Positions 6,689 through 42,948 of a stretch of 64,000 nucleotides of DNA are shown in pieces. This DNA comes from a virus. The position numbers and the translations under genes are program-made. Within the stretch, counting starts at the first letter, position 1, and the number at the start of each line of letters is the position of its first letter. Below the pieces are notes generated by a model that was not told the DNA's origin, did not search any database, and saw only the letters and a program-made list of their open reading frames with translations. The DNA lies in the IMG/VR virus record IMGVR_UViG_3300005731_000013, positions 1 through 64,000 of that record; one strand, 5' to 3'.

Positions 6689-9600
6689 TTAAATTTCGCA
6701 TCCGCCGCCGGCACACGCAATTGCACCCATCGTATCAATATCAGTATATGATTTTTCTGCCAATCCTGAATTAAAATCTACTGGTTGCATATTCTGTTGA
6801 ATTTTTGACCACTTATGTAACAAATATACATCTTTTAAGCAATATTCTGCCATTTTCATATCACCATCAAAATAATTAGTAGCAAAATTCTTAAATCTAC
6901 GAATCCAATCTGCGCCCAGATCAGCCTGTTCGCCGCTTTGTGCTTCTTCGTGTTGTGATGTAAATGTTGCTGACCATAAGTCACTAAATCCTTTAGAACT
7001 TTCAACAATCAATCCACTTGCAAATAAGGCTGCGCGACCATATTTCTGAATCAATTCTTCTTCAGTCAATACTTCTATAAATGGTGCTTGATTAAAATCC
7101 TTATCTCCACTAGCAGAAATAAAGCTAATGCCTGCAAAATAAGATCGATTATCAAACAAATATTGTTCTACCTCATCCCAATTATCATCAGCAACTTGAA
7201 CAGTATTCGATACATTATGTCTTACTGTAGGGTCGACACATAACTCTTCATCAGTTCCAAATTCAATCCAAGAATTTTGAACCAATTTTACTTTTTCAAG
7301 CAATTTAACACCATACAATTCTGTTTTAAATAATGACCCTTTTGGTGCAATAACAGGGAAAGATACAACATAATCAGTCCCGTTTGTGCTCCAAACACTA
7401 TCTTCAACCATATAAGGGTTTGTTTTAGCAATCAAATGTGCAACTTCTTGCTCTTTATTCATTTGCACATTTCGCAAGTAACGTGGCGAGTGATCGCCAT
7501 GAATGCCGCTCGATGTTCCTAGTAGTACAGATGCGTTACCACTTGGTTTAACACATGTTGTTCGTGCCGCTGCATTGATGCCTAATAGTGCTGCAACTTG
7601 CTTGTTAACTTTCTTGACAAGCTCTGCACCTTCTTTAAGAATTGCTTCGTCAAACAATACATCTGGGCTATTCATCCAACCAGTGATTGAAACACCAATA
7701 AGAGCTTCACGATCAAAAATCTTTTTGCTAATATCGTCAAGGAATTTAAAATCAGTATATCCAGCTTGTAAGGTTCCTAGGATAGCACCGACACGACATG
7801 CTTTTAGGAATTCTTCACGGGTTGTGCATTTTGCACCATTCAATTCACTAAGATTACAACCTTGCCAACCTGAATGTTTTTTACCTTTTTCATCAATATG
7901 AACAGGATACTTGCCAATCTCCACACAAGGGTTGTAAGTGTGTTCAGTTGATTCAGTAAACACAAACCCAGGTTCGCCGAACTCTTTAATTGACTTCATG
8001 ATTTCTGAAAACTGATCTCTGTCTGCTTCGCCACGAACAATGACTGCTGAATTGTTTGAACGACCGCGCTGAGGATTAGTGTTATACCAATCGCCTGTTT
8101 TCGCTTTAACCATTTCATCATCAGTTGGGCTGAATAGGCAAATAGTTGCTGAGCGGCGGACGCCTCCTGATAGAACTGCGTCTGCGGCATGCATACAAAT
8201 GTCATAAACTTCAATTGGTTTGAGTTTATCTCGACCAGCTAAGACTGCACCTTGGATAAGATGTTCAATTTTATCTAGTGCTTTACGTAGAGGCTCCGGA
8301 CCAGGTGCTTTGAACCCTCCGGAGATCATTGCTCCTTTAGGTCGAACTTTATTTAAATCAAAGTAGACGCGTCGGCCTTCGTATTCAGGGCGTTGGCCGC
8401 CACCAACAAAGAAACTTGCCATTAGAACGTCAAGTGCTGTTGCCCAACCTTCAATGCTGTCTTCAACTTCGTGAATCTTCGCTTGTCCTTTACGTTGAGT
8501 GACTTTTGGTAATTTTGCGACATGATGTGTTTGGACAGAAAAGCCAGCACCTGCGCCACATAGAAGAACGTAAAATAGTTCTCCAAAAAATGCTGCACGG
8601 TCTGCATATGAGCTGGTGCAATTACCTGTTGGAATACCTTTTTCCATAACAAAAGCATGGTCATCTTCAACTTCAAGGCACCAAACTGTTTCAATTTCGT
8701 CAGGAACGATAGATTCAACTTTCCATGATGCTGCAAATTTAGAATCTGTTATTGAAGAAAAACCAAATCTAATTGTATAACCACGCTCACCATAATTTGT
8801 TTTCGTTCCAGTTAAATCGACCTCACGATTTGGGTATATACCTGCGATTGGAAAGGCATTTCTTATAAATTCTGCTGCTTCTACATTTGAAGTTTGAATT
8901 CCTCTAAATTGTCCATGATCAAATTCAGAAACAGTTTTTTCACCATCTGCATCTAAATAACCTCTAACAAATGCACGAATCAAACGAGGGTCATCTTTTT
9001 TTGGATCTGGCAAAGTCTTTTTATATTTTCCAGTATATGCGATGACATCTCCTTCCAGGGATAAACTTGATGATGTTTTGAATCCTAGTTCTTTGAACCG
9101 ATATTCATACCCAACATCTTTATTACATAGTCTAACCATACTATGTGTTTTATTTACAGTGCCGTCACCATATACATATCCATATGCCCAATACAATTTT
9201 TCATCTGTCTCAGCGTCATCAAATTTAAAATCGTTAAATGTATTTTTAGTATGCATTAACGAGTCGCCAACCATCAAATTAGTTGTAATAGATCCATCCT
9301 TCAACAACCAACGGTGATCTTCAGTGAATCTGACAGTATGTGGAATGCCGCCATTTCGTCGAAATGTAATTTTATTGAGCTGTTGTTTGCCATAAGATTT
9401 AACTGTTGCTGATTTCCAATTTCCTTGTGGTGTTTTGACTTTAACAACATCGCCATCATTAAAATCATTGAATGATTGCATTCCATTTGTGGTCAAGAAT
9501 GTTGTTTCTCTCCCGCCACAGTTATACATTCGCATTTGGTGTTTAAGTATTTGTTCACCACCAAATTGCAATGCACGTTGCGCACCCAATACATATTTCA

Positions 9601-9802
9601 ATTTGTATAAGGCTTCAGCTTCGTCAATTAGTAACGACAATTCATCATTCATTTTGTCTTTATAGAACTCACGGTGCATACCCATAACACGGGTGACACT
9701 TTCTTCCCATGTTTCATATCTACCAACTTTGTCATTCCAACGGCTATAGCCTTCGTAAAATTTTGCTTCACCCATAAGGGCTCTTGTGTCGATATCTTTC
9801 AT
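6689..9802 (-). CDS. nrdJ: Class II (B12-dependent) ribonucleotide reductase with a cis intein
   Basis: MYN|C junction, GGVRRSA, YNPCVEI, GCNLSE, TTCVKPSGNAS, C-terminal CAGGGCEI; start at ATG 9802 after AGGAG. Confidence 0.93.
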   Translation of the reverse strand: MKDIDTRALMGEAKFYEGYSRWNDKVGRYETWEESVTRVMGMHREFYKDKMNDELSLLIDEAEALYKLKYVLGAQRALQFGGEQILKHQMRMYNCGGRETTFLTTNGMQSFNDFNDGDVVKVKTPQGNWKSATVKSYGKQQLNKITFRRNGGIPHTVRFTEDHRWLLKDGSITTNLMVGDSLMHTKNTFNDFKFDDAETDEKLYWAYGYVYGDGTVNKTHSMVRLCNKDVGYEYRFKELGFKTSSSLSLEGDVIAYTGKYKKTLPDPKKDDPRLIRAFVRGYLDADGEKTVSEFDHGQFRGIQTSNVEAAEFIRNAFPIAGIYPNREVDLTGTKTNYGERGYTIRFGFSSITDSKFAASWKVESIVPDEIETVWCLEVEDDHAFVMEKGIPTGNCTSSYADRAAFFGELFYVLLCGAGAGFSVQTHHVAKLPKVTQRKGQAKIHEVEDSIEGWATALDVLMASFFVGGGQRPEYEGRRVYFDLNKVRPKGAMISGGFKAPGPEPLRKALDKIEHLIQGAVLAGRDKLKPIEVYDICMHAADAVLSGGVRRSATICLFSPTDDEMVKAKTGDWYNTNPQRGRSNNSAVIVRGEADRDQFSEIMKSIKEFGEPGFVFTESTEHTYNPCVEIGKYPVHIDEKGKKHSGWQGCNLSELNGAKCTTREEFLKACRVGAILGTLQAGYTDFKFLDDISKKIFDREALIGVSITGWMNSPDVLFDEAILKEGAELVKKVNKQVAALLGINAAARTTCVKPSGNASVLLGTSSGIHGDHSPRYLRNVQMNKEQEVAHLIAKTNPYMVEDSVWSTNGTDYVVSFPVIAPKGSLFKTELYGVKLLEKVKLVQNSWIEFGTDEELCVDPTVRHNVSNTVQVADDNWDEVEQYLFDNRSYFAGISFISASGDKDFNQAPFIEVLTEEELIQKYGRAALFASGLIVESSKGFSDLWSATFTSQHEEAQSGEQADLGADWIRRFKNFATNYFDGDMKMAEYCLKDVYLLHKWSKIQQNMQPVDFNSGLAEKSYTDIDTMGAIACAGGGCEI
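8621..9520 (-). mobile_element. 300-aa cis intein with LAGLIDADG endonuclease in NrdJ
   Basis: Starts CGGRETTFLT; block B FTEDHRW; AYGYVYGDG and FVRGYLDADG; ends VWCLEVEDDHAFVMEKGIPTGN followed by Cys+1. Confidence 0.93.
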
Positions 9803-9813
9803 TACGTCTCCTA

Positions 9814-10329
9814 TTAATATTGATTTTGATCTAGATACGCTCGGATGTCCCACGATTCTCGTATCTCTAAAAAGTCAACATCATTCAGATCTATGACATT
9901 ACGTTGCATTGAATTCAAAGCATATTTACCATCAAAATTAGCGATCATATATTCGTCGTTGTAAGTCAGATCACGGACGCGATCAAGTGTGATATTAACA
10001 CTATTATCCATATAATACATATTATACGCCATCGCGAGACCTCTACTATACTTACAACATTCGCCTGAATCAATGATCTCCCAGACTGTTGGCCATTGCT
10101 CAGAATTGAAAGGATCTATAGCAACATTGACTTCTGGTGCTTGTTGCCACCAAATGCTAATTGCCTCTAATGAAGATAGCAAAATATTTCTGTTGCATTT
10201 ACTACGATCATTACTATAATGATTATAGTGATCTTGCAGATCAATTCTAAAAGTTCTCCAACTTGCTAGGCGTTCGTCAGGCGACCGCAACCACAAATTT
10301 TGTAACTGATTTATGTTCAGCTGTTCCAA
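9814..10329 (-). CDS. Hypothetical protein
   Basis: 171-aa ORF, WPTVWEII..G.CC motif; directly upstream of nrdJ. Confidence 0.65.
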   Translation of the reverse strand: MEQLNINQLQNLWLRSPDERLASWRTFRIDLQDHYNHYSNDRSKCNRNILLSSLEAISIWWQQAPEVNVAIDPFNSEQWPTVWEIIDSGECCKYSRGLAMAYNMYYMDNSVNITLDRVRDLTYNDEYMIANFDGKYALNSMQRNVIDLNDVDFLEIRESWDIRAYLDQNQY

Positions 10330-10527
10330 AGTGTTGACTATTTTTGTTACAACGTATAGTGTCGCAGCGTGATCATATTAATATATGTTGCGTCTATCCC
10401 GTTTTTGTTACTGTGTATTTAGCATTTTGCTAAATGATTTAAACTATAATAGCATATAACCTATTGATTGTAAAGGATATTTTCTACTAAATATGGTGTC
10501 TGATCTGATCGCAAATACATGTAAACA

Positions 10528-11202
10528 TTATGTTTCATAATATTTTCCTACTCGATGGGCCCATTTTTCTGCATAAGCATCAAATTCATCATCCATAATT
10601 TCAAAAAGTTGAAATTCTGCATCTCTACTGCACATAAAAATGGCGACAGATTTTATGTTTGTTCCAAATAATGCATTGTGGGCTAATCCGTATGCTGTGG
10701 CCTGTAAAAGATAATCTTCAATCCACTCACGCTTTTTAGGTTTATTAGTTTGCTTAAAATCACAAATCGTATCTCTTTGTTTCCAAACACCTACTAAGTC
10801 TGTCGTGCCTGCATACAATCCTGGATAATATAGCCCAACTTCAGTTCCCCACATTTCACTTAAATGTGGGGATATATTTTCAATTACTGTATTTGCCATT
10901 CGACCTGCAACACGGTGAATAAGATTATCTTGACGAGTATACTCGTCATTTATAATCCATTTTTCTAAATACCCATGCATCAACGTTCCAACGTTTGCTG
11001 CTTCTTTAAGAATGCTGGCGGCTTGTTCATTGCCTACACGTTTTCGCCAGTTATTCAATGCATCACGGGTTTCTATTGGTTTAGTTTTATCTAGAATAGT
11101 TGTAACACTTGGCAATTTTTCACCAGATGGGGTCAAATATAATCGTTTGCCATTCTCTGAACTTCTAGATATTGATTGATAATTAAATTTTTCAGTTATC
11201 AT
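10528..11202 (-). CDS. PD-(D/E)xK exonuclease (phage exonuclease/Cas4-like)
   Basis: LPSVTTIL, GTLMH, E..LY, YAGTTDL, DFKQ, YLLQATAY. Confidence 0.88.
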   Translation of the reverse strand: MITEKFNYQSISRSSENGKRLYLTPSGEKLPSVTTILDKTKPIETRDALNNWRKRVGNEQAASILKEAANVGTLMHGYLEKWIINDEYTRQDNLIHRVAGRMANTVIENISPHLSEMWGTEVGLYYPGLYAGTTDLVGVWKQRDTICDFKQTNKPKKREWIEDYLLQATAYGLAHNALFGTNIKSVAIFMCSRDAEFQLFEIMDDEFDAYAEKWAHRVGKYYET

Positions 11203-11268
11203 AAATTTCTCTTTTTAAGCTGGTCTAAATGACCAATCAGTCTTCACATACCTTTAGTTATTAAATAG

Positions 11269-11302
11269 AAAAGAAGGAGATGATTTCATCTCCTTCTTTT
11301 TT
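11269..11302. terminator. Bidirectional intrinsic terminator
   Basis: aaaagaaggagatga-tt-tcatctccttctttttt. Confidence 0.8.
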
Positions 11303-11476
11303 GATTGTTTTAAATATATTTGGTGGTCATAAATTCATATTACACTGAACTCATTGATTTGTAAAGAACTTTTTAATATGCACTGTGACCTTTTCTATAA
11401 TTAATCATATTAAATTCACTAGATCGCAATATGTTAATGCACAATGCGGCTGACATCCCAGTCGGCATAATCTACA

Positions 11477-11716
11477 TTACATGTCTGATGCGTCAGGCGC
11501 TACTAATTCTTCAAAATCTTCGGCCAATCTATCAAAATAATTGTGCATCTCATAAACATGGTCTGCACCAATACCTAAATGGTTTGCTGATTCTTGAATT
11601 TTGCCATCAAGTGCGTGAATCATATTCACAATTTCAGCAACAGTCTGTTCCGGGGTTGATTGTGTCTCAGATACTTGCCCAATACCAGCAAGTGATTTCA
11701 TTCGTGTAATATCCAT
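11477..11716 (-). CDS. Small acidic protein with RxKxLAGI motif (probable head protein)
   Basis: MDITRMKSLAGI; AGGAG RBS. Confidence 0.6.
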   Translation of the reverse strand: MDITRMKSLAGIGQVSETQSTPEQTVAEIVNMIHALDGKIQESANHLGIGADHVYEMHNYFDRLAEDFEELVAPDASDM

Positions 11717-11910
11717 TATTGATCTCCTGTAATTGCTTGCAAACGCTGACCTAGCTTGGTTAAGTGGCGGGCCAAGTAACTTGCGTCATTTGACATATTT
11801 AGTTCATTTGCAATATCATAAATTTCTGATGTGATCGCCATCAGCTCGTTATCTGCTGCATTTGCTTCATCAATGCCAGCAAGAGATTTAATACGTTCTA
11901 AATCTTCCAT
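11716..11910 (-). CDS. Small acidic protein with RxKxLAGI motif (probable head protein)
   Basis: Start moved to ATG 11910 after AAGGA: MEDLERIKSLAGI. Confidence 0.6.
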   Translation of the reverse strand: MEDLERIKSLAGIDEANAADNELMAITSEIYDIANELNMSNDASYLARHLTKLGQRLQAITGDQ

Positions 11911-12012
11911 ATAATTATCCTTATCTTTATAACCATGCATTGCATGAAGTTCATTTGTTTCAGCTTCTTTATAAACATAGTTGTTATATTCCAGTCTGTC
12001 AACTGGTAATCA

Positions 12013-12639
12013 TCACCAATATAATTCCCATATAAATGTATTTTGTGTTACTGTATTCTTCTTCGCTACAATATTATAGCCTAGGCCTTGGAAATGGTTA
12101 ACTACTTGCGCAAATTCATATGCTTTTTTACGATCTTCTGTTTGGCCGTTCCATACATTATAATATGCAACTGATTCAGGATCTGTCGGGGTATATGTTC
12201 CTGCTGTTAACCCGATATCTGTTAACGCGGATCCGGACCCTTCTGCGATTGTAACGGCCCAATTTGATTGGGTTGTTTCATATGTCAATACAATATCTGT
12301 TTCGACTTGTCGAGCTCTCAGCCCTGAAACCAGAACATTATTAATATCTGCTACGACCTGTTTGACACCCGTTCCGTCAGTAGCATCGCCACCCAATACA
12401 ATAGTCTCTGATGCAATTATTACTGTGTCACCAGGTGTGAATGGAGCAAATCCTGTCCCTTCAATTGTGATTGATGGAGTGCTTTCTGTCATCAATGTTC
12501 CGTCGTCAACAGTGACATCTAACTCACCTGCGAGGGCAGCGGTATTGATTGCTCTGTGTATTGCATCAATTTCATCGTAAATGACCTGATCTGATGTTGT
12601 AATAATTCTAGCGGAGGCCGCTGTTAATCCATGTGTCAT
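12013..12639 (-). CDS. Probable virion structural protein
   Basis: 208 aa, T/G/D-rich; VADINN...GL.A...ALTDIGLTAGTY resembles sheath-type beta domains. Confidence 0.5.
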   Translation of the reverse strand: MTHGLTAASARIITTSDQVIYDEIDAIHRAINTAALAGELDVTVDDGTLMTESTPSITIEGTGFAPFTPGDTVIIASETIVLGGDATDGTGVKQVVADINNVLVSGLRARQVETDIVLTYETTQSNWAVTIAEGSGSALTDIGLTAGTYTPTDPESVAYYNVWNGQTEDRKKAYEFAQVVNHFQGLGYNIVAKKNTVTQNTFIWELYW

Positions 12640-12974
12640 AAATCACTTCCTATATCATCTGTTGCTTGTTTTGTTGCCATATTGTTGACATGATCCGCTT
12701 CTATTTCTTCTGCATCTCTACCAACCATCATATTAGTATCAGTAGTGGCTATTTGAATATTATCAGCATTGGCTGTCGAAACAATGTCAATATTGTCTAA
12801 TAGATCGAGCAAGGTTTGCTCATCAATTGCAAAACCTTGCTCTTCTAAGTCTATTAATAGACTCTGGGTGCTTACTTCGTCCAGACCTTCTGCACTTATA
12901 GCTGTTAATAACGTGATTACTTCTGAACGGAGATCATTACTATAATCACTATCAAACAGCTCTCTAAATCTCAT
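12636..12974 (-). CDS. Acidic hypothetical protein (probable virion)
   Basis: 112 aa in late operon; MRFRELF N-terminus. Confidence 0.55.
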   Translation of the reverse strand: MRFRELFDSDYSNDLRSEVITLLTAISAEGLDEVSTQSLLIDLEEQGFAIDEQTLLDLLDNIDIVSTANADNIQIATTDTNMMVGRDAEEIEADHVNNMATKQATDDIGSDL

Positions 12975-26746: not shown

Positions 26747-28471
26747 CTATCTCCTGTTTAATATCCATTTTGAATGACCACAATCCCAAACTCGACTTAA
26801 ACCGAGACCTGTCATTATTTGTTTTTCTGATTGCGTAGGATCAAATCCTTCAGCGACCAATTTTTCTTTTTGTACATTCATACGATTTATTCGTTCACTA
26901 AAATTATATCTGTCTATATAAAAATATCCTGGATTTCCTCTAGAAACTAATTCAAATCCAATTTTATTATAAAAATCAGTATAACCCCAACAATTATTAG
27001 AAAATGTGATTATAACGGCAGGATCAACATCTTTAATAAATCTTGACAACAGTTTACTCGCACCACCGACAATATTTACACCTACACTGGAAGCAAACCG
27101 CACAATCTCCCATTCATTGCCATTTTTGAATCTATTCTTAGAAAATGTCATTACTGCCAGTAATTTGTCATTTTCGAATAAACCATATTTTAATTTTGAA
27201 TTGGCATACCCATCTAAATGATTAATGTCTAAAAAATCTCGGGCTTGTTGAACTGTCAATTCTTGTATTGTTGTATTACGTGCATAGATATTTATATTTT
27301 TTGATGTTATTGATTTAAGTCTAGACTTTACAATATCTTTATTTTTGTCCCATTCATCAGAAAAAATTTGTATTAACTTAACATTTTTTTCATTAGCGAG
27401 CTTTGTTTTATTATAATGGTAGAACTTATCTTTATCACATTCTTCAACATGCCAATAAAGCCCGTTTACTTCAATACCCAAATTTAACGTCGGAACATAT
27501 ATATCAATTTCTTTACCATCTAATATTTTACGATCTGAGCGTTGTATTTCAAAGCCTAGGCTTTCGATATATTCGCCAATTTCAAATTCAATATTGCTAT
27601 ATTTTAATGGTTTGCAAACAATACATCTAGATATTTGTCCATTTAAAATACGAGCTTGATAACTATTTCCACATTTCAAACATGTTACATTGTTATAAGT
27701 TGATGGGACATAATTTTCATCTATTTGAATATTATACTTTTCCTTATACCTCTGGACAAATGTTTTCTTTAAATTATTTGAAATCTTTTTTCTGACTACT
27801 GCATTTTTGGCAGGATTTTCATTTCCATATTTTTTTAAATTTGTTTTTTTAATTTGTTCAATATTGCAATAATTCTGATTTCCATATTTTTCTTGCTTTG
27901 TCTTCATACCACGTGTTGCAGCTAAATCATAATTGCGGTCTGCATGATTTTTTTCAATTATATCTGAATGCTGCATTACATTATCCACACCATAACGAGT
28001 TTGCACTGTTAATTTTGCTTTTTGTTTGATGCTGATATCTTGCATTGGATTCTCAACACCATAACGGTCTAAATTGGTCTGAGTTATTTTTTCTTTTACA
28101 GAATCATTTTGAAAAACATTCTCATTACCATACCGTTCTAGATTAGTGTCGGCTCTTTTTTTATTAATTGCGGCCTGTTCTTCTTGGGTATATTGTGCTT
28201 TTGTTTTTTTGACAGCCAATGATACTCTTTTAACATGACATGGACAATTTCTTTGACAAGCTCTGTAGCCGACACTGAATGAAATAAACCTGCTTTTGTC
28301 ACAATCCATTATTTTTTCTGGATAAACTAAATCAAATAATTCTTGTCCTGTCATTTTAAAGGAAAATAATGTTTCAATTTCTTTTAAACTTTTTCTAGAA
28401 CCCCACTGTCTAATCTGATTAAGATTTTTTCCAATCCACTTTTGTAACTTTGTAGGGATAATTTGATTCAC
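26747..28471 (-). CDS. Hef/Vsr-like homing endonuclease with TNLxxYG repeats and C-terminal GNAT-like domain
   Basis: TNLERYGNENV repeats, CxxC pairs, EIDIYVPTLNLGIEVNGLYWH, ARDFLDINHLDG..WEIVRF..GGASKL..RVWDCG; overlaps uvsW 3' end by 53 nt. Confidence 0.85.
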   Translation of the reverse strand: MNQIIPTKLQKWIGKNLNQIRQWGSRKSLKEIETLFSFKMTGQELFDLVYPEKIMDCDKSRFISFSVGYRACQRNCPCHVKRVSLAVKKTKAQYTQEEQAAINKKRADTNLERYGNENVFQNDSVKEKITQTNLDRYGVENPMQDISIKQKAKLTVQTRYGVDNVMQHSDIIEKNHADRNYDLAATRGMKTKQEKYGNQNYCNIEQIKKTNLKKYGNENPAKNAVVRKKISNNLKKTFVQRYKEKYNIQIDENYVPSTYNNVTCLKCGNSYQARILNGQISRCIVCKPLKYSNIEFEIGEYIESLGFEIQRSDRKILDGKEIDIYVPTLNLGIEVNGLYWHVEECDKDKFYHYNKTKLANEKNVKLIQIFSDEWDKNKDIVKSRLKSITSKNINIYARNTTIQELTVQQARDFLDINHLDGYANSKLKYGLFENDKLLAVMTFSKNRFKNGNEWEIVRFASSVGVNIVGGASKLLSRFIKDVDPAVIITFSNNCWGYTDFYNKIGFELVSRGNPGYFYIDRYNFSERINRMNVQKEKLVAEGFDPTQSEKQIMTGLGLSRVWDCGHSKWILNRR

Positions 28472-29279
28472 GATAATATTTCTTTCGTTCTGTTAAATGA
28501 CGTTTTGAATATTTTGCTGAGCTGCATAAATCATAAATTTCAACATGATCTTTATCAAACCCTTTTCTTAGTCCGCGGCCAATACTCTGGATTACTCTTA
28601 CAAAACTTTTTCCTGGTTCCAATAATACCATGTTATTTATACGAATAATATTGATACCTGTAGATGCAACTCCAAACGTTGCGATAACAATTTTACCATC
28701 ACCATCTTTAAATTTATCGTATTCTGATTTTCTATCTTTACTATCCATTTTACCTGATACAAAAATAATATCGTCTATACCTAATTCATTCAATGCTTCA
28801 ACAATCATTTCTCCAGTTTTGATATTATTAACCAACACCAAAGTATTTGAATTATTAGAAATATTGTCAATAAATGAGGACAGCCAAACCATACGTTCTT
28901 TATTTGATGTCAAATATTTCATTTCTGAATGATAATTGTCATAAACAATATCATCTTTCAATTGTATAACATTAATATCACAGCTACTCAAAATTCCTTT
29001 ATCTTGTAATACGCTAGATTGTAATGATCCAACTGTTGGTCCTATGCCAACAGCAATCGACATCTCGAAATGTTTTTCTTTTGGAATTGTTCCTGTCAAC
29101 CCCCACCTAATAGGAACATTTGCAAATGGTCCGGTCAATAGTTTTTTCAAAACATCTGCTTTACCTAAATGGCAGTTTTTTACCACAGCATTATTAGCTA
29201 TATAATTATGATCATTTTCAACATGTAAATTATATACGGTGTCAGGCTTTGTTATTTTTGTTTTTTTTATAAGTTTCAT
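28419..29279 (-). CDS. uvsW: UvsW helicase C-terminal fragment preceded by a split-intein C-part
   Basis: 35-aa IntC, then CHLGKAD..WGLTGT..ATFGVASTGINI..IQSIGRGLR (SF2 motifs II-VI). Confidence 0.9.
   Translation of the reverse strand: MKLIKKTKITKPDTVYNLHVENDHNYIANNAVVKNCHLGKADVLKKLLTGPFANVPIRWGLTGTIPKEKHFEMSIAVGIGPTVGSLQSSVLQDKGILSSCDINVIQLKDDIVYDNYHSEMKYLTSNKERMVWLSSFIDNISNNSNTLVLVNNIKTGEMIVEALNELGIDDIIFVSGKMDSKDRKSEYDKFKDGDGKIVIATFGVASTGINIIRINNMVLLEPGKSFVRVIQSIGRGLRKGFDKDHVEIYDLCSSAKYSKRHLTERKKYYRESNYPYKVTKVDWKKS
29175..29279 (-). mobile_element. Split intein IntC (35 aa) of UvsW
   Basis: MKLIKKTKITKPDTVYNLHVENDHNYIANNAVVKN|C: blocks F/G, terminal Asn, Cys+1. Confidence 0.9.
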
Positions 29280-29342
29280 AAAAATGTTCTACTTTTTTCT
29301 TTGTATTTGTATCAAAATATTCAATTCGATAAATTAATCACA

Positions 29343-30425
29343 TTACCTTTTGGCATATGTATGTATGTCAATAATTTCCATTTCATTGGTAATTTGATCT
29401 GCTCTGACCCAACCAATGTTTTCTACTAGAAACTCATGATTTGCTGTGACACGTATTTTACTATTATCATCAAACTCTAATTCAAGCATATCTTCAGATT
29501 CTGATTTGGTTAAATTATTATGCACTTTAACAATAGTATCTTCTTTATATGTTAACGTTTTTTCATCTAAATTAATAATTTTATCACCAGGTTGTAAGTT
29601 TGATATCTTTTTCTCGCCATCTGGTGTTAAAATTAATGTGTCGCCATCAAGACACTCATCTACAATTACAGCATACACTCCTTCGATAAATTCTTCCAAA
29701 GATAGCTCACTTTTGCCTTCTTGGAAATTTTTGCGCATGACTTCTAAACTTTGCCACGTACATATCGTATGAGTTTTGCCTACATCTTTTCTATCACCAT
29801 AATAAACACCAACATCAAGTCCAAGGTTAATGTAGTCTTCTTCAGTTTGCGTTACAAGATCTTTATTCGGAACAATGACTATTGTCCTTGCGCCCGCACG
29901 ACCTGACGTTATTTTCTGCATCACCTCATCTTCAGGAGTGATACTTTTTTCGACCAAATCACTTAACGCAGCCGTGACGATTGTCTTACCAGCACCAGTA
30001 CCAACAACTTGGACTGCTTTTTCATTAGTAATGAAATTATTGATAACATCAAGCTGATAATCACGTAAAATGACAGGTTGGCCTGCCACTGGATGACCCT
30101 CTGGCCAAAGTCTGTCTTTGAAATGATCAATTGTGATAGGTTTTAAGTCAATTTTATAACGTTCACGACAATCATCTAATGAAACTTCGTATCCTTCTGC
30201 AATCAGAATAGGCAAAATTTCTTCAAGCAAGTTGATAAATGTTTTGCCACCTAATTGGAAGAACTGCACTTTACCATCCCACCGCCCCATTTTATAGGCA
30301 GGGACATGGTAAGCATGTGGTAACATGAAAGAAAATTTGTCATATAATTTTCTTCGCGTAGAGGTGTCTAAGTTATGAATTTTACAGTTTGTTTCATCCA
30401 GTAATTCAATTTTTGCTGTTTTCAT
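29343..30425 (-). CDS. uvsW: UvsW helicase N-terminal fragment followed by a split-intein N-part
   Basis: GRWDGK, LRDYQ, GTGAGKT, VIVDE, then intein sequence to the stop. Confidence 0.9.
   Translation of the reverse strand: MKTAKIELLDETNCKIHNLDTSTRRKLYDKFSFMLPHAYHVPAYKMGRWDGKVQFFQLGGKTFINLLEEILPILIAEGYEVSLDDCRERYKIDLKPITIDHFKDRLWPEGHPVAGQPVILRDYQLDVINNFITNEKAVQVVGTGAGKTIVTAALSDLVEKSITPEDEVMQKITSGRAGARTIVIVPNKDLVTQTEEDYINLGLDVGVYYGDRKDVGKTHTICTWQSLEVMRKNFQEGKSELSLEEFIEGVYAVIVDECLDGDTLILTPDGEKKISNLQPGDKIINLDEKTLTYKEDTIVKVHNNLTKSESEDMLELEFDDNSKIRVTANHEFLVENIGWVRADQITNEMEIIDIHTYAKR
29346..29654 (-). mobile_element. Split intein IntN (103 aa) of UvsW
   Basis: CLDGDTLILTPDG (block A) ... IRVTANHEFLV (block B) ... 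GWVRADQI, stop. Confidence 0.9.
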
Positions 30426-30508: not shown

Positions 30509-30537
30509 AATATACACTTTTTATGTAATGATGTCAA
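30509..30537 (-). promoter_or_regulatory. Sigma70-like promoter upstream of uvsW-N
   Basis: TTGACA-17 nt-TATATT. Confidence 0.65.
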
Positions 30538-30552
30538 GTAATTAGTCAAATG

Positions 30553-30581
30553 AAAAGGACAGGCATAAAGCCTGTCCTTTT
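30553..30581. terminator. Intrinsic terminator
   Basis: aaaaggacaggc-ataaa-gcctgtcctttt. Confidence 0.8.
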
Positions 30582-36372: not shown

Positions 36373-36476
36373 ATTATTTTCCTTTATGTAAATATGGGCA
36401 TTATATTCAATTGATCAATTTTCATCAGAAAACATCAAGAATATTCCCAATCATTTTAATATATCCTATTAAAATG

Positions 36477-36501
36477 ATCACAGGGCCTAAGGCCCTGTGA
36501 T
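36477..36501. terminator. Hairpin after the gp32-like gene
   Basis: atcacagggcc-taa-ggccctgtgat. Confidence 0.7.
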
Positions 36502-36520
36502 ATATTATTGTGTGTTTTTA

Positions 36521-37486
36521 TCAGCTATTTTTACTGCGCTGTTGGATTTTTGCTAGAATATCCTTAGCGTCAGTAACTGGACGTGAATTTTGTGTTTCAC
36601 TTGCGTCTGGCTGATTGACAGGCGCAGTAGGTGTGATTGGCGCTTCAGCTTTTGGTGTTACATTAGCTGCACGATCACTTGAGTCTTTCTTCGGTGCTTC
36701 CATACCGTATGGACGATAATAATCTGCAAACCGTTCTGGATCATATAACTCACCATCTACGCTTGCTTCAAACATATTGAAGATAACTTGCAATTCTTCA
36801 GCATTTGGCTTTTTAGGTAAGAAATCATTCAAATCATACAGCCCATGCGTTGCAATAATGTCACGTTCTTCTTGATTCAACGAGCGTTCTTTACGAGCCC
36901 AATTACTTGTTGTATAATCCGCATATTGACCTTTTTTGGTTTTGGTAATACGGAAATCAACACCTTGATCATAATCTGTTGGCAAATATTCACCAAAATC
37001 TGGATCCATCAATGCACTTTTAATGATGTTATTAATTTGTGTATTGATGATCAAACGACGAATTGGATTCTCTGGTGTTTCTTCTTCAGTAAATGCACTG
37101 TTTACAACTAATGCCTGATAAATGAAGCTACGCTTTTTCCAATATTTACGAGCCATGTCTTCCATGCTCGGATCCTTGAACCAAGGACGAATTTCGTCAT
37201 GAATAGGGCATTTCATACCATCCCACATTTCTACACATGGAACCTTAATAGTAACAGGTTTATTTTCGTCACCACCTTTAATCCCACTAAATGTGATATT
37301 AATCATTTGACGCTCACGCCAAAAGAAATCATTGTTCGTATTACCGTCTGGTAGGAAACGAACTACAGATGTTTCATTTTCAGGAGTATTCCAATGTGGG
37401 TAAATTGCGTTATCTGAACTGCCTTTTACGCCTTTTTGCTTCTCTTGTGCTAGAAGCTTTTCTCTAATTTCAGCTAGTGTTGCCAT
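36521..37486 (-). CDS. Single-stranded DNA-binding protein (T4 gp32-like)
   Basis: VRFLPD..N.FFW, PC.EM....CPI, KYWKKRS, G.DF.I.KT.KGQYADY..S. Confidence 0.88.
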   Translation of the reverse strand: MATLAEIREKLLAQEKQKGVKGSSDNAIYPHWNTPENETSVVRFLPDGNTNNDFFWRERQMINITFSGIKGGDENKPVTIKVPCVEMWDGMKCPIHDEIRPWFKDPSMEDMARKYWKKRSFIYQALVVNSAFTEEETPENPIRRLIINTQINNIIKSALMDPDFGEYLPTDYDQGVDFRITKTKKGQYADYTTSNWARKERSLNQEERDIIATHGLYDLNDFLPKKPNAEELQVIFNMFEASVDGELYDPERFADYYRPYGMEAPKKDSSDRAANVTPKAEAPITPTAPVNQPDASETQNSRPVTDAKDILAKIQQRSKNS

Positions 37487-37567
37487 TTTTATTTTTCCTA
37501 TGTTAGTAACCGGTTATCCGGCTCATGTTGGTTGTTAGACAAGCATGTTATCTATTGTAACATCTTG

Positions 37568-37596
37568 AATTTACAGTATTTTTCGGCGTCTGTCAA
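37568..37596 (-). promoter_or_regulatory. Sigma70-like promoter for the gp32-like gene
   Basis: TTGACA-17 nt-TAAATT. Confidence 0.55.
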
Positions 37597-37608
37597 GTAA
37601 GTTCTTGA

Positions 37609-39204
37609 TTATACGCCGAAAATTTTCTGTACGTTATATTTATCGAATGCCTCAGTAATTTTCTCCATTTCTTCAAGATCAATAGCATTTTTTTCACTAC
37701 CAATCGTGTTTACTTCTGAAACGATTGCTTTTTGCCCTATCACATTCAATGCTGTTAGTGCTATTTTAATATGTGCATTGCCTACTTCAAATACAGTATC
37801 TGACAATTGCATCATTTTATTTGCTAGCTCGTCATCTTTAATTTTTGGAGCAAGGTATGTTACCATTGCTGAAATCTTAGCCGCAGGATCTTTGAACTGT
37901 CGATTTGCAGGATTTTCAGGATCATCATCATCAATTGACGAACTAATTGTAATGTTATCACCCATATTCATCACAAGCTTTGCAAAGTCCATAATTTCTT
38001 TTTCTTTCTCTTTACGAGTGCGAAAACCTTCAATTATCTTAGCCACATATGGCAGACTATCTGCAATGCTTTCATCAAAATATCTGATTGTGACATTATC
38101 TTTTAATTCATCTAATTTTTCAGGTGCAACATTATGCTGTTCTTTAGTAAAGTTTTCATAATGATGGTTATATCCTTTTGGGCCTGACATTTGCTTCAAA
38201 TTCTTACGAATTGACTCAATGCGCAATCCAATCTCTTCAGTAATAGCAACATCTTCAAAAAAGTTATTGCGTTTGTTTTTACGATTAAATTTCTTAAGGT
38301 GATCTAATTCAGCCATGCATTCATATATGTGCTGCCCAAAATCGTCATGTGGCGCGCCGCCTTCTTGAACATGGCGCAACATTGCTTTCGCTGCGGTCAA
38401 ATTCTTGCTTGGAAATTTAAAACGTTCGCCTTCTGCATTCTCAACAAAAATGCTTTCAATTTGGCGTGTTCTTGCCCCGCGTTTTGTTTCATCAACTGAA
38501 CGCTTATGTCTGACAACCAAACGAGCATCTCCTAGTTCATTCATGCTTTTACGAGCAGAACCATGCCATCCACTGAAGCCTTCTTTTAAGGCTGCTCTAG
38601 CTTGGGTATATCCTGGAAACTTTTTTGAAGGATATTTTGCTGCCCATTTTCTTTTTAATTGACGTTGCATAATGTATTCAGAGTCTGATTGGGCAATATC
38701 ATTTGATCTGGCAGATTTTGACATACCTTGACCTAGCACACGCCCAGAATTTGAGTTGTCTGTCTCTGTTTCTTCTAGTTTTCCATAATCACCGCCGCAT
38801 TGCGGGCATTCATCTACATTTTTAGTTGCATCACAAAATTCACATTGTTCATTCATTTCCGATTCCTTGACTGTTCTGGCTTGATATGCAAAATCCTTAG
38901 GTGAAATTGATTTACCATATGTCTTGACAGTAAACTCAACAATGTACCTATTTGCTAAATTTCGCAAACTTGTAATTAATGGTTTAATTTCATCAATCAC
39001 TACATCTTTTGATAAATTGATGATAATTTCTGATTTCGAATCACTGACTTCGAAATTAATCATCACCTTTATGTCTTTTATATAAAATCGTCGAGCCTGT
39101 TCAGGGTCAACTGTTTTTTTGCCGTCCTCCGTAAAAAGAACGATATTATGACCGAATCCTTTGACGATCTTAAAAATTTGTTCTGCAATTTGTTCTGTAG
39201 CCAT
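37609..39204 (-). CDS. Conserved late (probable virion/head) protein
   Basis: 531 aa; RLVVRHK..VDE..RGARTRQIESIFVENAEGERFKFP; TAAATA 5 nt before ATG. Confidence 0.65.
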   Translation of the reverse strand: MATEQIAEQIFKIVKGFGHNIVLFTEDGKKTVDPEQARRFYIKDIKVMINFEVSDSKSEIIINLSKDVVIDEIKPLITSLRNLANRYIVEFTVKTYGKSISPKDFAYQARTVKESEMNEQCEFCDATKNVDECPQCGGDYGKLEETETDNSNSGRVLGQGMSKSARSNDIAQSDSEYIMQRQLKRKWAAKYPSKKFPGYTQARAALKEGFSGWHGSARKSMNELGDARLVVRHKRSVDETKRGARTRQIESIFVENAEGERFKFPSKNLTAAKAMLRHVQEGGAPHDDFGQHIYECMAELDHLKKFNRKNKRNNFFEDVAITEEIGLRIESIRKNLKQMSGPKGYNHHYENFTKEQHNVAPEKLDELKDNVTIRYFDESIADSLPYVAKIIEGFRTRKEKEKEIMDFAKLVMNMGDNITISSSIDDDDPENPANRQFKDPAAKISAMVTYLAPKIKDDELANKMMQLSDTVFEVGNAHIKIALTALNVIGQKAIVSEVNTIGSEKNAIDLEEMEKITEAFDKYNVQKIFGV

Positions 39205-39369
39205 GTTAATATTTATCCGGATCTCTTATTTCAATGTCTTAATTTTCTTGTTTTAACATATGACAGGTTAAATGTTTCTGTCCTAATTTGCCATGAGAGC
39301 TGCTATGTAACTCTTTACCAGGCATTGACTTTAATTGGAGTTTTGACTCAATTAAATTACGATAATGCA

Positions 39370-40458
39370 TCACAAAACTCCAATTGGCATAGGACGACGA
39401 AGATCACTATCATCAAAACTATCTTTCAAATCATCAAATGCTTCTGGATCGTATTTTGCAACTTGCATCGCCATTCTAACAGCCAACAATGTTGACATAA
39501 CCAAATCATCTGTTTCGCCTTCTTTTGCTGCATAGCTATTGCCTTTTGCAACAAATGTTTTAAGTTCACGAGTTAAATTCTTACTACGGATTTTCATGGT
39601 ATCTTCTTCAACCCATCGCTTTAACTTTGCACATGCAGCTAGTTTTGAAGAATGTGTTGTGTTGAATCCTTTACGGTAACGTTTAACATTACCCCGCCGT
39701 TTCGGCTCGCTTAAGAACACACCTGGAATGTTTTCTTCGCCCATCTCCTCAATAGAGACTAGTGCTGCCTCGCCTAACGTATTGTTTTCAACTGAATAAT
39801 AGATTTCACTATTGGGTGCTGACTCTTCTAACTCTTCTAAAATGCCACGCATGATTTTAATTTGACTTTGCACTGTTGTTTTGTTATGCTGCCATTCACC
39901 AATTTGTTTCATCCCAGGGATTGCATAAATTTGAATGGCAGATGGGTCGCCACCTGTACCTAAACTAGGGTCAAGTGACACGATGTAAGTCTGTCCATCT
40001 TTGATTGTGTCATACCAACGCACCTGTCCTGAACGACGCATTGGTTCCATACCTAAATCCATATCAGTCAGGAATAAGGCGCTAATAAGTGTTTCATCAA
40101 ACGCAATAAATTCGCAGTTTGAAACTAAAATATCATTGCCATAAAATCTATTTCCGCCGTCAACACCAATTAAGTCATATACTGCTTCGATTCGACCAGT
40201 ATATTTTGCTGCTGTCACTATTAATGGATCACCCAAAGCTGATACTTTATCACCAACTTTAAATAAATCAGCGGATCGTTTGTTCCCGTCAACATCATAA
40301 ATTTCATGATTATCAGTGCATTCAATAAATTGACCATTATCAAAATCAAGACGGTATATGGGCTTATCACCCATATATGATATTCCTTTGAAATGTTGAT
40401 AACCATTATGGGTTAAAATTTTTAACCCTTTTGTGTTTTCTTTAAAAATCTGAGTCAT
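39370..40458 (-). CDS. terL: Terminase large subunit C-terminal (nuclease) fragment preceded by a split-intein C-part
   Basis: 114-aa IntC then CEFIAFDE..SLDPSLGTGGD..SVENN..ETDDLVM; start set at ATG 40458. Confidence 0.9.
   Translation of the reverse strand: MTQIFKENTKGLKILTHNGYQHFKGISYMGDKPIYRLDFDNGQFIECTDNHEIYDVDGNKRSADLFKVGDKVSALGDPLIVTAAKYTGRIEAVYDLIGVDGGNRFYGNDILVSNCEFIAFDETLISALFLTDMDLGMEPMRRSGQVRWYDTIKDGQTYIVSLDPSLGTGGDPSAIQIYAIPGMKQIGEWQHNKTTVQSQIKIMRGILEELEESAPNSEIYYSVENNTLGEAALVSIEEMGEENIPGVFLSEPKRRGNVKRYRKGFNTTHSSKLAACAKLKRWVEEDTMKIRSKNLTRELKTFVAKGNSYAAKEGETDDLVMSTLLAVRMAMQVAKYDPEAFDDLKDSFDDSDLRRPMPIGVL
40117..40458 (-). mobile_element. Atypical split intein IntC (114 aa) of TerL
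   Basis: MTQIFKENTKGLKILTHNGYQHFKGI...IECTDNHEI (block B)...VYDLIGVDGGNRFYGNDILVSN|C. Confidence 0.9.
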
Positions 40459-40466
40459 GCATATAT

Positions 40467-42029
40467 TTATGCATGCCATACCCATTTGATTTTTCCTGAA
40501 TCCCAGGTACGTAAAATGCCAGCATTGTTAGTCATTTGAAATTCTGTTAAATCATCTGAATAATATTCAGGCAATTTGTTTTTAATTCCTTTACGTGTGA
40601 AATAACTACAATGTCTCCATTTATTATCATACAAGTATCTATATGTTGGGCGTTGTTCTTCAATTTTTGTAAACCCTGTTTTTTCATATAAGTCACCAGT
40701 AAACCAATCATTCATTGAAAATGATACTACTTTATCGAATTTCAATTCGTTCTGTGCAAATTTAAAAGTTTTACTGAATAGACCTGGATGTGTATATTCA
40801 TCTGTCACCCACCGTTTTAATTCAAAATGTTGATTGCGTGACATACCAAATGACATTACACCTATTATTCGATGCATTGCATCAAATGCCGCAAAATGCG
40901 TTCCTGCTACATATCCTTGAAGGTGATATTTATTTAAAAAAAGTTTGGCAGCCTTACCTGAAATTTTATCAATTGTTGCTTTTCTAGCAGGGACGCCACG
41001 ATTCTTTAAATTCAATGAAGATTGGATCATTCTTTTGAATTTATCTTTATTATTATTCCAATCTGTCTCCCAAATCTGAATTAATCTTATTCCTTGATTG
41101 CGGGCTGAGTTCCATTTGTCTTGATGATATTTTTTATCTCTTTTTAAATCACTATGCCAATAATCGCCATTCATTTCAATTGCAAGATTATGACTTGGCA
41201 TGTAGAAATCCAATTCATAAGGAGGTATAATAGTTCTTATATTTTGATCAAATGTCACATTACAGTCATTCAAAAATGTTGCCATTTCCTGTTCTAAATA
41301 TGATGTTTTTAAAAATTCTGTTAAATTATGTTCGTGAATTTTTCGAATGATTGTAGATTTATTAACGCCAATTTCTTGAGCTAACTCACGGATAGATTTA
41401 GTTGTCAGTTCATGTTTTAGATTTGATTTATCTGATAAAATTAATTGGTATTTTGTCTCAATATGCTTATTATTGAAATGTGAATTTCCATATCTATCGT
41501 AATTAGTCTGAATTTTTTTATGCTGTATCGCTGCACTTAAAGATGGATTTTCAACACCATAGTTTTTTATTAAAGTCTCTGTTTTTCTTTGTTTTATAAT
41601 ATCACATTGTGACGGATTTTCAACACCATATTTGGACAAATTAGTTTGAAGTCTAATTTGTTGACCATGTTCAGTTTGTGAATGATATTTGACTCCAAAA
41701 TTTTGTAATGAGGTTTGCTCTTTTTTCAGCTTGACTTCAGAAGAATTATTACTGCATTTTGAACTACAATAACTTCTATAATTACCTCGTTCAGTCTGAT
41801 AGTGCGGGTTAACCACATTGTCCCATTTAACAGGTTGATTACAAGCAGAATTCATACAAGTCAACACACTATTATGTCCAGACATCAAATGCCAAACAAT
41901 TTGTTTGGGTGTAGCATTTATCTGTATTTCTTCATCTAATACTGATAGATCGTATGATTTTAATAATGAACGAGCAATCCTTTTTTGAGCATATAACTTT
42001 TGTAATTCAGACTGATTCATAATAATCAT
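40467..42029 (-). CDS. Free-standing Hef/Vsr-like homing endonuclease between the two terL halves
   Basis: C.NSAC, YCSSKC, TNLSKYGVENP repeats, HTH, ELDFYMPSHNLAIEMNGDYWHS, GNAT-like C-terminus. Confidence 0.88.
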   Translation of the reverse strand: MIIMNQSELQKLYAQKRIARSLLKSYDLSVLDEEIQINATPKQIVWHLMSGHNSVLTCMNSACNQPVKWDNVVNPHYQTERGNYRSYCSSKCSNNSSEVKLKKEQTSLQNFGVKYHSQTEHGQQIRLQTNLSKYGVENPSQCDIIKQRKTETLIKNYGVENPSLSAAIQHKKIQTNYDRYGNSHFNNKHIETKYQLILSDKSNLKHELTTKSIRELAQEIGVNKSTIIRKIHEHNLTEFLKTSYLEQEMATFLNDCNVTFDQNIRTIIPPYELDFYMPSHNLAIEMNGDYWHSDLKRDKKYHQDKWNSARNQGIRLIQIWETDWNNNKDKFKRMIQSSLNLKNRGVPARKATIDKISGKAAKLFLNKYHLQGYVAGTHFAAFDAMHRIIGVMSFGMSRNQHFELKRWVTDEYTHPGLFSKTFKFAQNELKFDKVVSFSMNDWFTGDLYEKTGFTKIEEQRPTYRYLYDNKWRHCSYFTRKGIKNKLPEYYSDDLTEFQMTNNAGILRTWDSGKIKWVWHA

Positions 42030-42045
42030 ATTACTATCATTTTAG

Positions 42046-42948
42046 TTATTTGTCAATGGTTTCAAACAGATCACCAATTGTCTGATCATATTCGCCATTT
42101 TCATCCATTAATTTCAATAGTGTATTGTATGTCAAACAAAGGTGTTCACGACGGAATCTCTCATCACCAATCTTTTGTTGTTCTTCATCTGCCCATGCCT
42201 GGTCTCGATCTGGGTGCTCTTCCCACGTAACAATATATGGACGGAATCCATTTGTTCCGACTTCTGTTTCATTACCATAATCATCAAGGCGTTTATTAGC
42301 CTGCTTCCAAATTTGAGCAAATTGGTCATCATCTTGGTTAGGCGTAGAAGTGATAATACATTTACCACCTGTAGATAGAGTTGGTGAAATAGAGGTCCAA
42401 AATTCCTGCGCAACACGAGGTGGTACAAACGCAAATTCGTCCAAGTAAACTAGCGAAAGTGACAAACCTCGGCCTGTGTTTTCTGTAGTAGCCTGTGCAA
42501 TAATCTTGCTACCGTTGTCAAATTCAATGCTACCTTTATTATATGCAGTAACACCTGCACGAATATGATCTGGGCAACTTTCATACATGTAACGCAATCG
42601 TGTCATGATTTCATTTGCACCATCACGTTTATGTGCAGCCACAAGAATTGTTTTATCAGACTGAAACATTGCAAACCAAAGTAAGTATGCAGCCGCACAT
42701 GTTGATTTACCAGTTTGCCTAGAGAGCAAACTGATTGAATATCTGTAATCGTTATAGGAATTAATCAATCCTACTTGATAATCATATAACTCGAATGGCA
42801 TACGACCTTTAGTAGGATGTTGAATATAACAATAGTTACGGATAAAGTGCAACGGATTGATTGAACATAATGCCAATTCTTTAAGTTGATGTTGACTGAC
42901 CGTTTCTTCTTGGTATGGTTTTTTGATTAAGTCTGTATTGACAGCCAT
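42046..42948 (-). CDS. terL: Terminase large subunit N-terminal (ATPase) fragment followed by a short split-intein N-part
   Basis: LYDYQ, SRQTGKST, GRGLS, YLDEFAFV, ITSTPN, FRREHL, then 30-aa IntN. Confidence 0.92.
   Translation of the reverse strand: MAVNTDLIKKPYQEETVSQHQLKELALCSINPLHFIRNYCYIQHPTKGRMPFELYDYQVGLINSYNDYRYSISLLSRQTGKSTCAAAYLLWFAMFQSDKTILVAAHKRDGANEIMTRLRYMYESCPDHIRAGVTAYNKGSIEFDNGSKIIAQATTENTGRGLSLSLVYLDEFAFVPPRVAQEFWTSISPTLSTGGKCIITSTPNQDDDQFAQIWKQANKRLDDYGNETEVGTNGFRPYIVTWEEHPDRDQAWADEEQQKIGDERFRREHLCLTYNTLLKLMDENGEYDQTIGDLFETIDK
42049..42138 (-). mobile_element. Atypical split intein IntN (30 aa) of TerL
   Basis: CLTYNTLLKLMDENGEYDQTIGDLFETIDK then stop: block A only. Confidence 0.88.

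Follow-up and report, generated by a model that had tools for sequence, protein, structure and literature searches.

We analysed a window of 64,000 nucleotides, the first 64 kb of the 167,976-bp viral contig IMGVR_UViG_3300005731_000013 from IMG/VR, in which the genes for the ribonucleotide reductase NrdJ, the terminase TerL and the helicase UvsW are each interrupted by an intein. All three loci are encoded on the minus strand and belong to a T4-like core block that also holds gp32, UvsX, the tail sheath gene and others. By TerL and UvsW, the nearest cultured relatives are the jumbo phages Atu_ph07, PA5oct-like phages and SCTP-2 (46-50% identity), and the genome is that of an uncultured jumbo T4-like phage rich in mobile elements. 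Since CheckV places the contig at 46% completeness and the window covers only 64 kb, three inteins are a minimum for the genome. Alleles at the insertion sites were surveyed in 80 related viral contigs for NrdJ, 25 for TerL and 80 for UvsW. Each insertion is exact when compared to relatives that are uninterrupted at the same codon (78/80, 24/25 and 65/80, respectively). Neither split locus had a megablast match among 50,697 phage records, and tblastn was required.

The first of these genes, nrdJ, carries a continuous (cis) intein. Its features are:
6689..9853, minus: nrdJ open reading frame (ORF), class II (L. leichmannii RTPR-like) ribonucleotide reductase with a cis intein; Pfam RNR_Alpha, RNR-II_ins_dom and barrel domain
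8621..9520, minus: NrdJ cis intein, 300 residues (112-411 of the ORF); Cys1, TEDH block B, two LAGLIDADG motifs, ends GN, +1 Cys
9155-9196 and 8936-8980, minus: LAGLIDADG motifs of the intein (..YGDG.. and ..DADG..), acidic residues present
8618-8620, minus: +1 Cys, following ..GN

The true start of nrdJ is likely the ATG at 9802, as matches to relatives begin near residue 16-20. The initial annotation had described a cis intein with an internal LAGLIDADG endonuclease here, and the comparison with relatives bears this out: 78 of the 80 related contigs run uninterrupted over ..MYN|CTS.., and the remaining two (L110 and L111) hold the same 300-residue element, at 75-76% identity compared to 84-89% for the exteins. 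Profile scores for the intein were weak, with 23.1 bits for TIGR01443 (above cut-off) and 17.9-20.4 bits for LAGLIDADG_3 (PF14528; below the 22.5 cut-off). Because a sequence search of the PDB with the intein returned nothing meaningful, we turned to fold comparison. An AlphaFold (AF2) model built with 25 homologues as input reached a predicted local distance difference test score (pLDDT) of 91.6, and its top Foldseek matches were the TliVMA, PI-SceI and PI-PfuI inteins (E 1.9e-10 to 3e-7). The two parts of the model matched I-DmoI and mini-inteins. Model and fold match thus show the architecture of a PI-SceI-like LAGLIDADG cis intein, in which a two-motif endonuclease domain interrupts a HINT splicing domain. 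An intein-less relative aligns to PDB 1L1L (E 4e-31), and the +1 Cys corresponds to C119 of L. leichmannii RTPR in that structure. This cysteine is native to the host protein, with CTS present in 78/78 empty alleles. RTPR C119 is one of the redox-active cysteines. The ratio of nonsynonymous to synonymous substitution rates (dN/dS) of the NrdJ intein is 0.06-0.13.

The TerL gene is broken in two within its intein, and the N- and C-terminal intein parts (IntN and IntC) are encoded on either side of an endonuclease gene:
42046-42948, minus: TerL-N ORF, ends ..RREHL followed by 30 residues from CLTYN
42139..42948, minus: TerL N-extein, ATPase part, 270 residues; Pfam Terminase_6N (E 4.6e-20); collinear with Atu_ph07 TerL up to ..EHE|CEF
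42049..42138, minus: TerL IntN, 30 residues, starts CLTYN, net charge -5; stop codon at 42046-42048
40467..42029, minus: free-standing homing endonuclease gene, 520 residues; Pfam DUF7487 repeats, helix-turn-helix, Vsr-like/EDxHD nuclease, C-terminal domain of ~190 residues
40464..40470, minus: ATAAATA, late-promoter-like core, overlapping the endonuclease stop codon and 5 nt before the Met10 ATG of TerL-C
39370-40485, minus: TerL-C ORF, opens with IntC ending ..ILVSN|CEF
40117..40458, minus: TerL IntC, 114 residues from Met10; ECTDNH block B, ends ILVSN
39370..40116, minus: TerL C-extein, nuclease part, starts CEF; 49% identity to Atu_ph07 TerL from C342 on

Against Atu_ph07 TerL the two exteins abut without a missing residue (..EHE|CEF), and 24 of the 25 related contigs are uninterrupted at this codon, the same split being found only in L005. 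The +1 Cys is again native (CEF in 24/24 empty alleles). IntN carries only block A, and IntC carries blocks B, F and G, with ECTDNH (block B) and ..VSN. General intein profiles score this element below cut-off: a genome scan with PF14890, TIGR01445, PF13403 and PF07591 did not detect it and a direct Pfam scan gave only 17.6 bits. The assignment therefore rests on the match to a known intein, on the alignment of homologues and on a model of the complex. By phmmer, TerL IntC matches PDB 6DSL_B ('CatC') over residues 12-125 (E 5.7e-12), and the CatC chain ends ..CE at the position aligned with the TerL junction. CatC is part of Cat, a consensus engineered from the atypical split inteins AceL-TerL and GOS-TerL. 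A collection of 5.8 billion proteins yielded 18 further TerL-C halves of ~362 residues each, and T57, H60, S122, N123 and C124 are invariant in 19/19 IntC sequences (the 18 homologues and our own). The length of these homologues agrees with Met10 (40458) as the start of TerL-C, and the 30/114 split reported in the initial annotation is retained on that basis. Counted from the first ATG (40485), IntC would be 123 residues, a form that is also possible given an AGGA 7 nt before that ATG.

Docking of IntN into IntC was predicted with an interaction prediction score from aligned errors (ipSAE) of 0.85, compared to 0.00 for the best control; runs agreed in at least 88% of contacts and the partner pLDDT was at least 77. 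Of 80 solved complexes, 58 reached this ipSAE mark, compared to 2 of 110 mismatched pairs. This prediction may reflect the likeness to the solved complex 6DSL, and as such it shows likeness, not proof. With its site right before CEF, the short IntN/long IntC split and the homology to CatC, the TerL intein is a member of the GOS-TerL/AceL-TerL/Cat family and is predicted to splice in trans.

The locus also has the layout of a fractured gene, with the endonuclease gene on the same strand between 42046-42948 and 39370-40485. The nuclease domain of this endonuclease matches PDB 3R3P_A (I-Bth0305I; E 3.9e-4), the Pfam MTES_1575 REase family matches it at E 7.9e-6 (26.3 bits, below the 38.2-bit cut-off), and a paralogue gives a Pfam match to Vsr (E 1.7e-3). 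The motif ELDFY..IEMNGDYWH is visible, which corresponds to the Vsr-like/EDxHD pattern (E..D..E.NG.YWH), and the domain is a putative DNA-cleaving nuclease of the PD-(D/E)xK fold. In L005 (IMGVR_UViG_3300022689_000130) a different endonuclease lies between the TerL halves (L005:4974-6053; 359 residues, no C-terminal domain, 23% identity over the repeat region), a comparison that suggests endonuclease turnover within a stable TerL split intein.

The UvsW gene is broken as well, and the following features were found there:
30509..30581, minus: terminator with a 12-bp stem, then a sigma70-like promoter (TTGACA-17-TATATT; promoter 30537-30509, 11/12 match, best in the region), upstream of UvsW-N
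29343-30425, minus: UvsW-N ORF, ends VIVDE plus a 103-residue IntN
29655..30425, minus: UvsW N-extein, 257 residues, ends VIVDE of helicase motif II
29346..29654, minus: UvsW IntN, 103 residues, net charge -10; CLDGDT.., TANH block B
29280..29345, minus: stop codon and 63-nt spacer between the halves; three in-frame stops, no gene; halves in the same frame
28419-29279, minus: UvsW-C ORF, begins with a 35-residue IntC ending ..VVKN|CH
29175..29279, minus: UvsW IntC, 35 residues, net charge +3, ends VVKN; TIGR01443 26.1 bits
28419..29174, minus: UvsW C-extein, starts CH of DECH; Pfam Helicase_C
26747..28471, minus: free-standing endonuclease gene directly after UvsW-C, 574 residues, paralogue of the TerL-locus endonuclease (26% identity over full length, E 1e-39)

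This intein scores above cut-off with PF14890 (54 bits; cut-off 35.8), TIGR01445 (45.9 bits) and TIGR01443. It has Cys1, TxxH, a terminal Asn, a +1 nucleophile and a split between blocks B and F, and is thus a class 1, canonically split intein with a DnaE/gp41-1-like split site. As the initial annotation had noted, nothing lies between the 103- and 35-residue halves, and the locus lacks the endonuclease gene of a fractured gene, having a 63-nt spacer in its place. Among the 80 related contigs, the DE|xH site is empty in 65, holds a continuous 142-residue mini-intein in three (L032-L034; for example L032:812-1234), is split with a 291-residue TnsA-like endonuclease gene of the Proteus phage PM2 type in 11, and is split without an insert in one (L044). 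The continuous cis allele shows that both halves belong to one HINT domain. From this comparison, the 63-nt spacer looks like the scar of a lost endonuclease gene. A native, conserved +1 Cys had been claimed for all three inteins; this holds for NrdJ and TerL and fails for UvsW. The residue after DE in the empty UvsW alleles is Val in 55, Ala in 8 and Cys in 2, so that 63/65 read DEVH or DEAH, compared to DECH in 15/15 intein-bearing alleles. The UvsW +1 Cys therefore either moves together with the intein or is a prerequisite for it. In addition, the UvsW intein of PM2 is 54-57% identical to ours whereas the exteins are only 25-26% identical, which argues for horizontal transfer of the intein.

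Cys1, TxxH, the terminal Asn and the +1 Cys are present in all three inteins. The penultimate residues are G (NrdJ), S (TerL) and K (UvsW), and the junctions read GN, SN and KN as previously described, without the usual His. A penultimate His assists Asn cyclisation in most inteins and is common but not universal. Ser is invariant at this position in 19 TerL IntC sequences, while 12 UvsW inteins tolerate K, S, A, E, Q or H there; the missing His is therefore a family trait and not a sign of decay. The inteins are under purifying selection, with dN/dS of 0.06-0.32 where dS could be measured; dS is near saturation, and its saturation in several comparisons left some values not computable. From these features, we infer that all three inteins splice. 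Custom hidden Markov models of the TerL-IntC and UvsW-intein families, run against the six-frame translation of the 168-kb contig, found no further members and only weak cross-hits among the three known loci, although divergent inteins could escape such a search and the contig covers 46% of the genome.

Taken together, the data favor a reading in which three unrelated, independently acquired selfish inteins sit in three core genes, each at a different stage of the intein/homing-endonuclease life cycle, and we assign this a probability of roughly 0.85. NrdJ would represent the classic cis stage, with an intein that carries its own LAGLIDADG endonuclease and was inserted before the active-site Cys (the RTPR C119 equivalent). 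For TerL, the halves would be made separately, the short acidic IntN would dock into the large IntC, and trans-splicing would rebuild ..REHL-CEF... UvsW would hold a canonically split intein in motif II from which the intervening endonuclease gene has been lost, leaving the 63-nt scar, and trans-splicing would restore DE-CH. The coexistence of three inteins would reflect a heavy load of mobile elements (at least 8 endonuclease paralogues on 168 kb) and not a regulatory function. Among the closest relatives the combinations differ: in G001 the split intein occupies TerL and the NrdJ and UvsW sites are empty, G002 has the NrdJ intein with empty TerL and UvsW sites, and all three sites are empty in G003. 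This pattern argues for independent selfish invasions as opposed to a designed circuit.

The initial annotation had proposed that splicing acts as a timing step or AND gate, and had pointed to a sigma70 promoter before UvsW-N and a late motif before TerL-C. Both elements are there. Expanded into a full alternative, the split inteins would be a selected regulatory device that couples early and late expression, with split points evolved for orthogonality. The strength of the sigma70-like promoter before UvsW-N speaks for this, as does the ATAAATA before TerL-C, which recurs ~19 nt before TerL-C in L005 despite the differing intervening endonucleases. However, each pair has both its halves in one temporal class, which leaves the timing proposal unsupported. 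Within the UvsW spacer we found nothing promoter- or terminator-like, so both UvsW halves are served by the one upstream promoter; for TerL, the operon of TerL-N is likewise preceded by a promoter-like ATAAATA (at 44304), which puts both halves in the late class. The closest relatives moreover work with uninterrupted genes, each intein is independently present or absent, and the split points recur in related inteins of other phages, as traits of each family rather than mutual adaptations. A simpler reading of the element before TerL-C would be an internal promoter that offsets polarity caused by the inserted gene, as proposed by Dassa et al. 2009 (PMC2677866). With regard to orthogonality, the topological part of the earlier argument is sound. 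The UvsW and TerL split inteins are only 26% identical, a 30+35-residue combination would have no block B and a 103+114-residue combination would duplicate it, and the two pairs very probably do not cross-react. Charge does not separate the pairs, as both have an acidic IntN (TerL -5, UvsW -10) and basic partner segments (+3 and +3); topology and sequence do. The special need for orthogonality that had been invoked does not hold, since unrelated split inteins are orthogonal as a rule: mutual orthogonality was seen for 15 of the 16 that were tested (PMC7090010), and Cat, a TerL-type atypical intein, has already been used alongside canonical Cfa without cross-reaction (PMC11185735). Halves made by different co-infecting phages could plausibly be joined if they belong to the same intein family. 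Overall, we regard a selected regulatory device as very unlikely.

It is also quite unlikely that at least one of the interrupted genes is dead or decaying, with an inactive intein and a function that is lost or provided by other means. T4 can do without UvsW in the laboratory, the UvsW C-extein here contains a highly divergent tract of 138 residues, and none of the three inteins has a penultimate His, all of which would fit decay. Yet all catalytic residues and extein motifs are intact, there are no frameshifts, intein dN is well below dS, and all 19 TerL-C halves keep the SN|C junction unchanged. TerL is furthermore essential for packaging, and no second TerL occurs among the ORFs of the contig, which is 46% complete. 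The co-occurrence of the inteins could alternatively be an assembly artefact, a chimera of close strains with one intein each; the contig is metagenome-assembled and close relatives with single inteins exist. These relatives are, however, only 70-89% identical in protein and too distant for co-assembly, the three loci lie 10-20 kb apart in one collinear T4-like core block of uniform composition, and a multi-intein genome is known from a cultured phage (PM2, with split UvsW and split UvsX). Of the alternatives, this one appears the least probable. Several points nevertheless weigh against three independent selfish inteins: splicing of all three is a prediction; all three lack the penultimate His, where conservation within the families argues for tolerance; the general Pfam and TIGR profiles fall short for TerL; the promoter-like ATAAATA of TerL-C makes some separate control of this half possible; and a chimera joining the alleles of different strains is formally possible in a metagenome assembly.

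The sequence ATAAATA is probably the late-promoter core of this phage, and would be shorter than the TATAAATA of T4. On the whole contig it occurs 51 times, and 21 of these copies are placed 0-40 nt ahead of a gene start on the same strand, compared to 6% for heptamers of the same composition, with a mode at 16-23 nt. Only this position relative to gene starts is informative, as raw counts were not enriched (8 found versus 9 expected for TATAAATA, and 27 versus 38 for ATAAATA). Examples in the window, all on the minus strand, are at 5981, 13693, 16973, 20431, 23372, 44304, 48078 and 59991.

Beyond the intein itself, the UvsW C-extein is unusually divergent in one part. Residues 28-165 of the C-extein (28680-29093, minus; ~25 residues past the intein site) form the 138-residue divergent tract, which is 37-49% identical to the four closest relatives, while those relatives are 73-90% identical among themselves in this region. 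Identity returns to baseline in the last ~90 residues of UvsW and in the next gene (84-92%). We searched 85 loci for a donor and identified none, the best match having 49% identity; the tract may have been co-converted from an unsampled donor. The endonuclease gene after UvsW-C (26747-28471), which the initial annotation had omitted, is absent at this place in G001, G003 and G004. There the downstream gene directly follows UvsW, so this copy is a separate insertion. A tentative and rather doubtful idea is that this Vsr-like endonuclease gene, ~0.7 kb downstream at the 3' end of uvsW, keeps the endonuclease-less split intein mobile in trans ('collaborative homing'), in which case the tract would be a co-conversion scar. 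Collaborative homing has so far been described for group I introns in phages. If it applied here, the locus would illustrate the persistence of a split intein after its own endonuclease has gone, and the atypical and canonical split inteins of this phage would form an orthogonal pair that had co-evolved in nature.

The TerL intein closely resembles GOS-TerL, AceL-TerL and Cat (Dassa 2009; Thiel 2014; Bachmann & Mootz 2015; Stevens 2018; PDB 6DSL), which interrupt the same host protein at the same ..|CEF junction. Their IntN and IntC measure 25-37 and 104-122 residues, compared to 30/114 here, and block B is likewise in the C half; tabulated sizes, given with rates, are 37/115 for GOS-TerL, 25/104 for AceL-TerL and 30/104 for Cat (PMC11766414). 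Cys1 and Cys+1 are shared with AceL-TerL, and an endonuclease gene between the halves is shared with GOS-TerL. In contrast to the Cat construct, which has a penultimate His, the 19-member TerL subfamily identified here has an invariant Ser. Our TerL IntC is ~10 residues longer than that of AceL or Cat; further differences are that the host is a jumbo phage and that splicing is a prediction. The gene layout follows the fractured genes of Dassa et al. 2009 (PMC2677866), who described this arrangement together with a terminase bearing a 122-residue IntC and the Vsr-like endonuclease family. As in fractured genes with Vsr-like EDxHD endonucleases of the I-Bth0305I type (PMC2677866; Taylor et al. 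2011, PMC3239194), the two halves and the endonuclease gene between them share a strand, and their junctions are short or overlap. The Vsr-like nuclease domain, the promoter-like element at the 3' end of the endonuclease gene and free-standing family members between other genes are also shared with these systems. Our endonucleases differ in being larger (505-646 residues), in being modular, with DUF7487 repeats and an extra C-terminal domain, and in their number, at least 8 being present on one contig. Without an intervening gene, the UvsW locus resembles the gp41-7 locus of Dassa. In Atu_ph07, TerL is annotated as two coding sequences 11 nt apart (L002, MF403008: 81368-81739 and 79548-81356) and is apparently broken at Walker A (..GRQLGK / ..NGILSHN|TTVAAAYLLW), with surplus segments of ~42 residues (N piece) and ~148 residues (C piece). 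A further atypically split intein, located elsewhere in TerL, could account for this break.

Proteus phage PM2 (MF001355) provides the closest parallel for UvsW. It has the same intein family at the same UvsW DE|CH site and split point (IntN 57% and IntC 54% identical), and it too contains two different split inteins. Unlike at our locus, a 291-residue TnsA-like endonuclease gene lies between its UvsW halves and the penultimate residue is His; its second split intein is in UvsX, with +1 Thr, and not in TerL. The PM2 record annotates the UvsW pieces as 'DNA helicase' and 'hypothetical protein', and neither UvsX nor UvsW is marked as an intein. PM2 uvsX (L194, MF001355: 5535-8083; and L004) is fractured, with the junctions ..MTGG|CVVAGT.. 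and ..VVTHN|TG; two ORFs separate its halves, and a 'Hef-like homing endonuclease' is encoded downstream. The survey of allele states and of multiple split inteins suggested in the initial annotation thus returned empty, cis, fractured and split alleles for UvsW, empty and occupied alleles for NrdJ (78 and 2) and TerL (24 empty, 1 fractured), and two split inteins in PM2. Two split inteins in one phage genome are not unique, since PM2 (UvsW and UvsX) and the 25.6-kb contig G008 have two fractured loci each. The second fractured gene of G008, which also has a fractured uvsW, lies at ~1688-4490 of L195 (G008:C1:19000-25631) and consists of a 401-residue ORF with an IntN-like tail, two small ORFs and a 183-residue ORF that opens IntC-like, preceded by a DUF7487-type endonuclease. 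The dnaE gene of Trichodesmium erythraeum reportedly has cis inteins and a split intein in one gene (Liu & Yang 2003). It would be like our phage in combining cis and split inteins in one genome; unlike our phage, this genome is cellular and would have one split pair only, with halves at distant loci.

All intein parts found here are known kinds of selfish mobile element, and the genome is a tidy example of them rather than a new regulatory device; as new members of known families, they reveal no new mechanism or regulatory principle. A literature search found no paper naming a UvsW intein or treating several split inteins in one phage. The value of the finding lies in new natural members of two useful split-intein classes, the TerL-type atypical inteins with a conserved penultimate Ser and the UvsW motif-II intein. 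As both coexist in one virus, they are candidates for an orthogonal tool pair. In addition, related phages together display each of the four stages of the proposed gene-breaking pathway at the one UvsW codon, namely an empty site, a cis mini-intein, a fractured gene with its endonuclease gene, and a split intein that has none.

The load of endonucleases of one family is unusually heavy. At least 8 paralogues of the 505-646-residue modular endonuclease (DUF7487 repeats, Vsr-like nuclease, C-terminal domain) were found on the 168-kb contig, at these positions:
In the window: 26747-28471, 40467-42029, 48126-49643, 51403-53040, 63190-65130
On the contig: 65574-67145, 80692-82293, 83372-84916

The six copies away from the intein loci stand between core genes, including those for the tail tube and tail sheath. 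Their other neighbours, as read from N-termini, are presumably baseplate, capsid, gp46/gp47 and gp55 genes. The C-terminal domain of these paralogues has a faint match to the Mom family (E 0.08).

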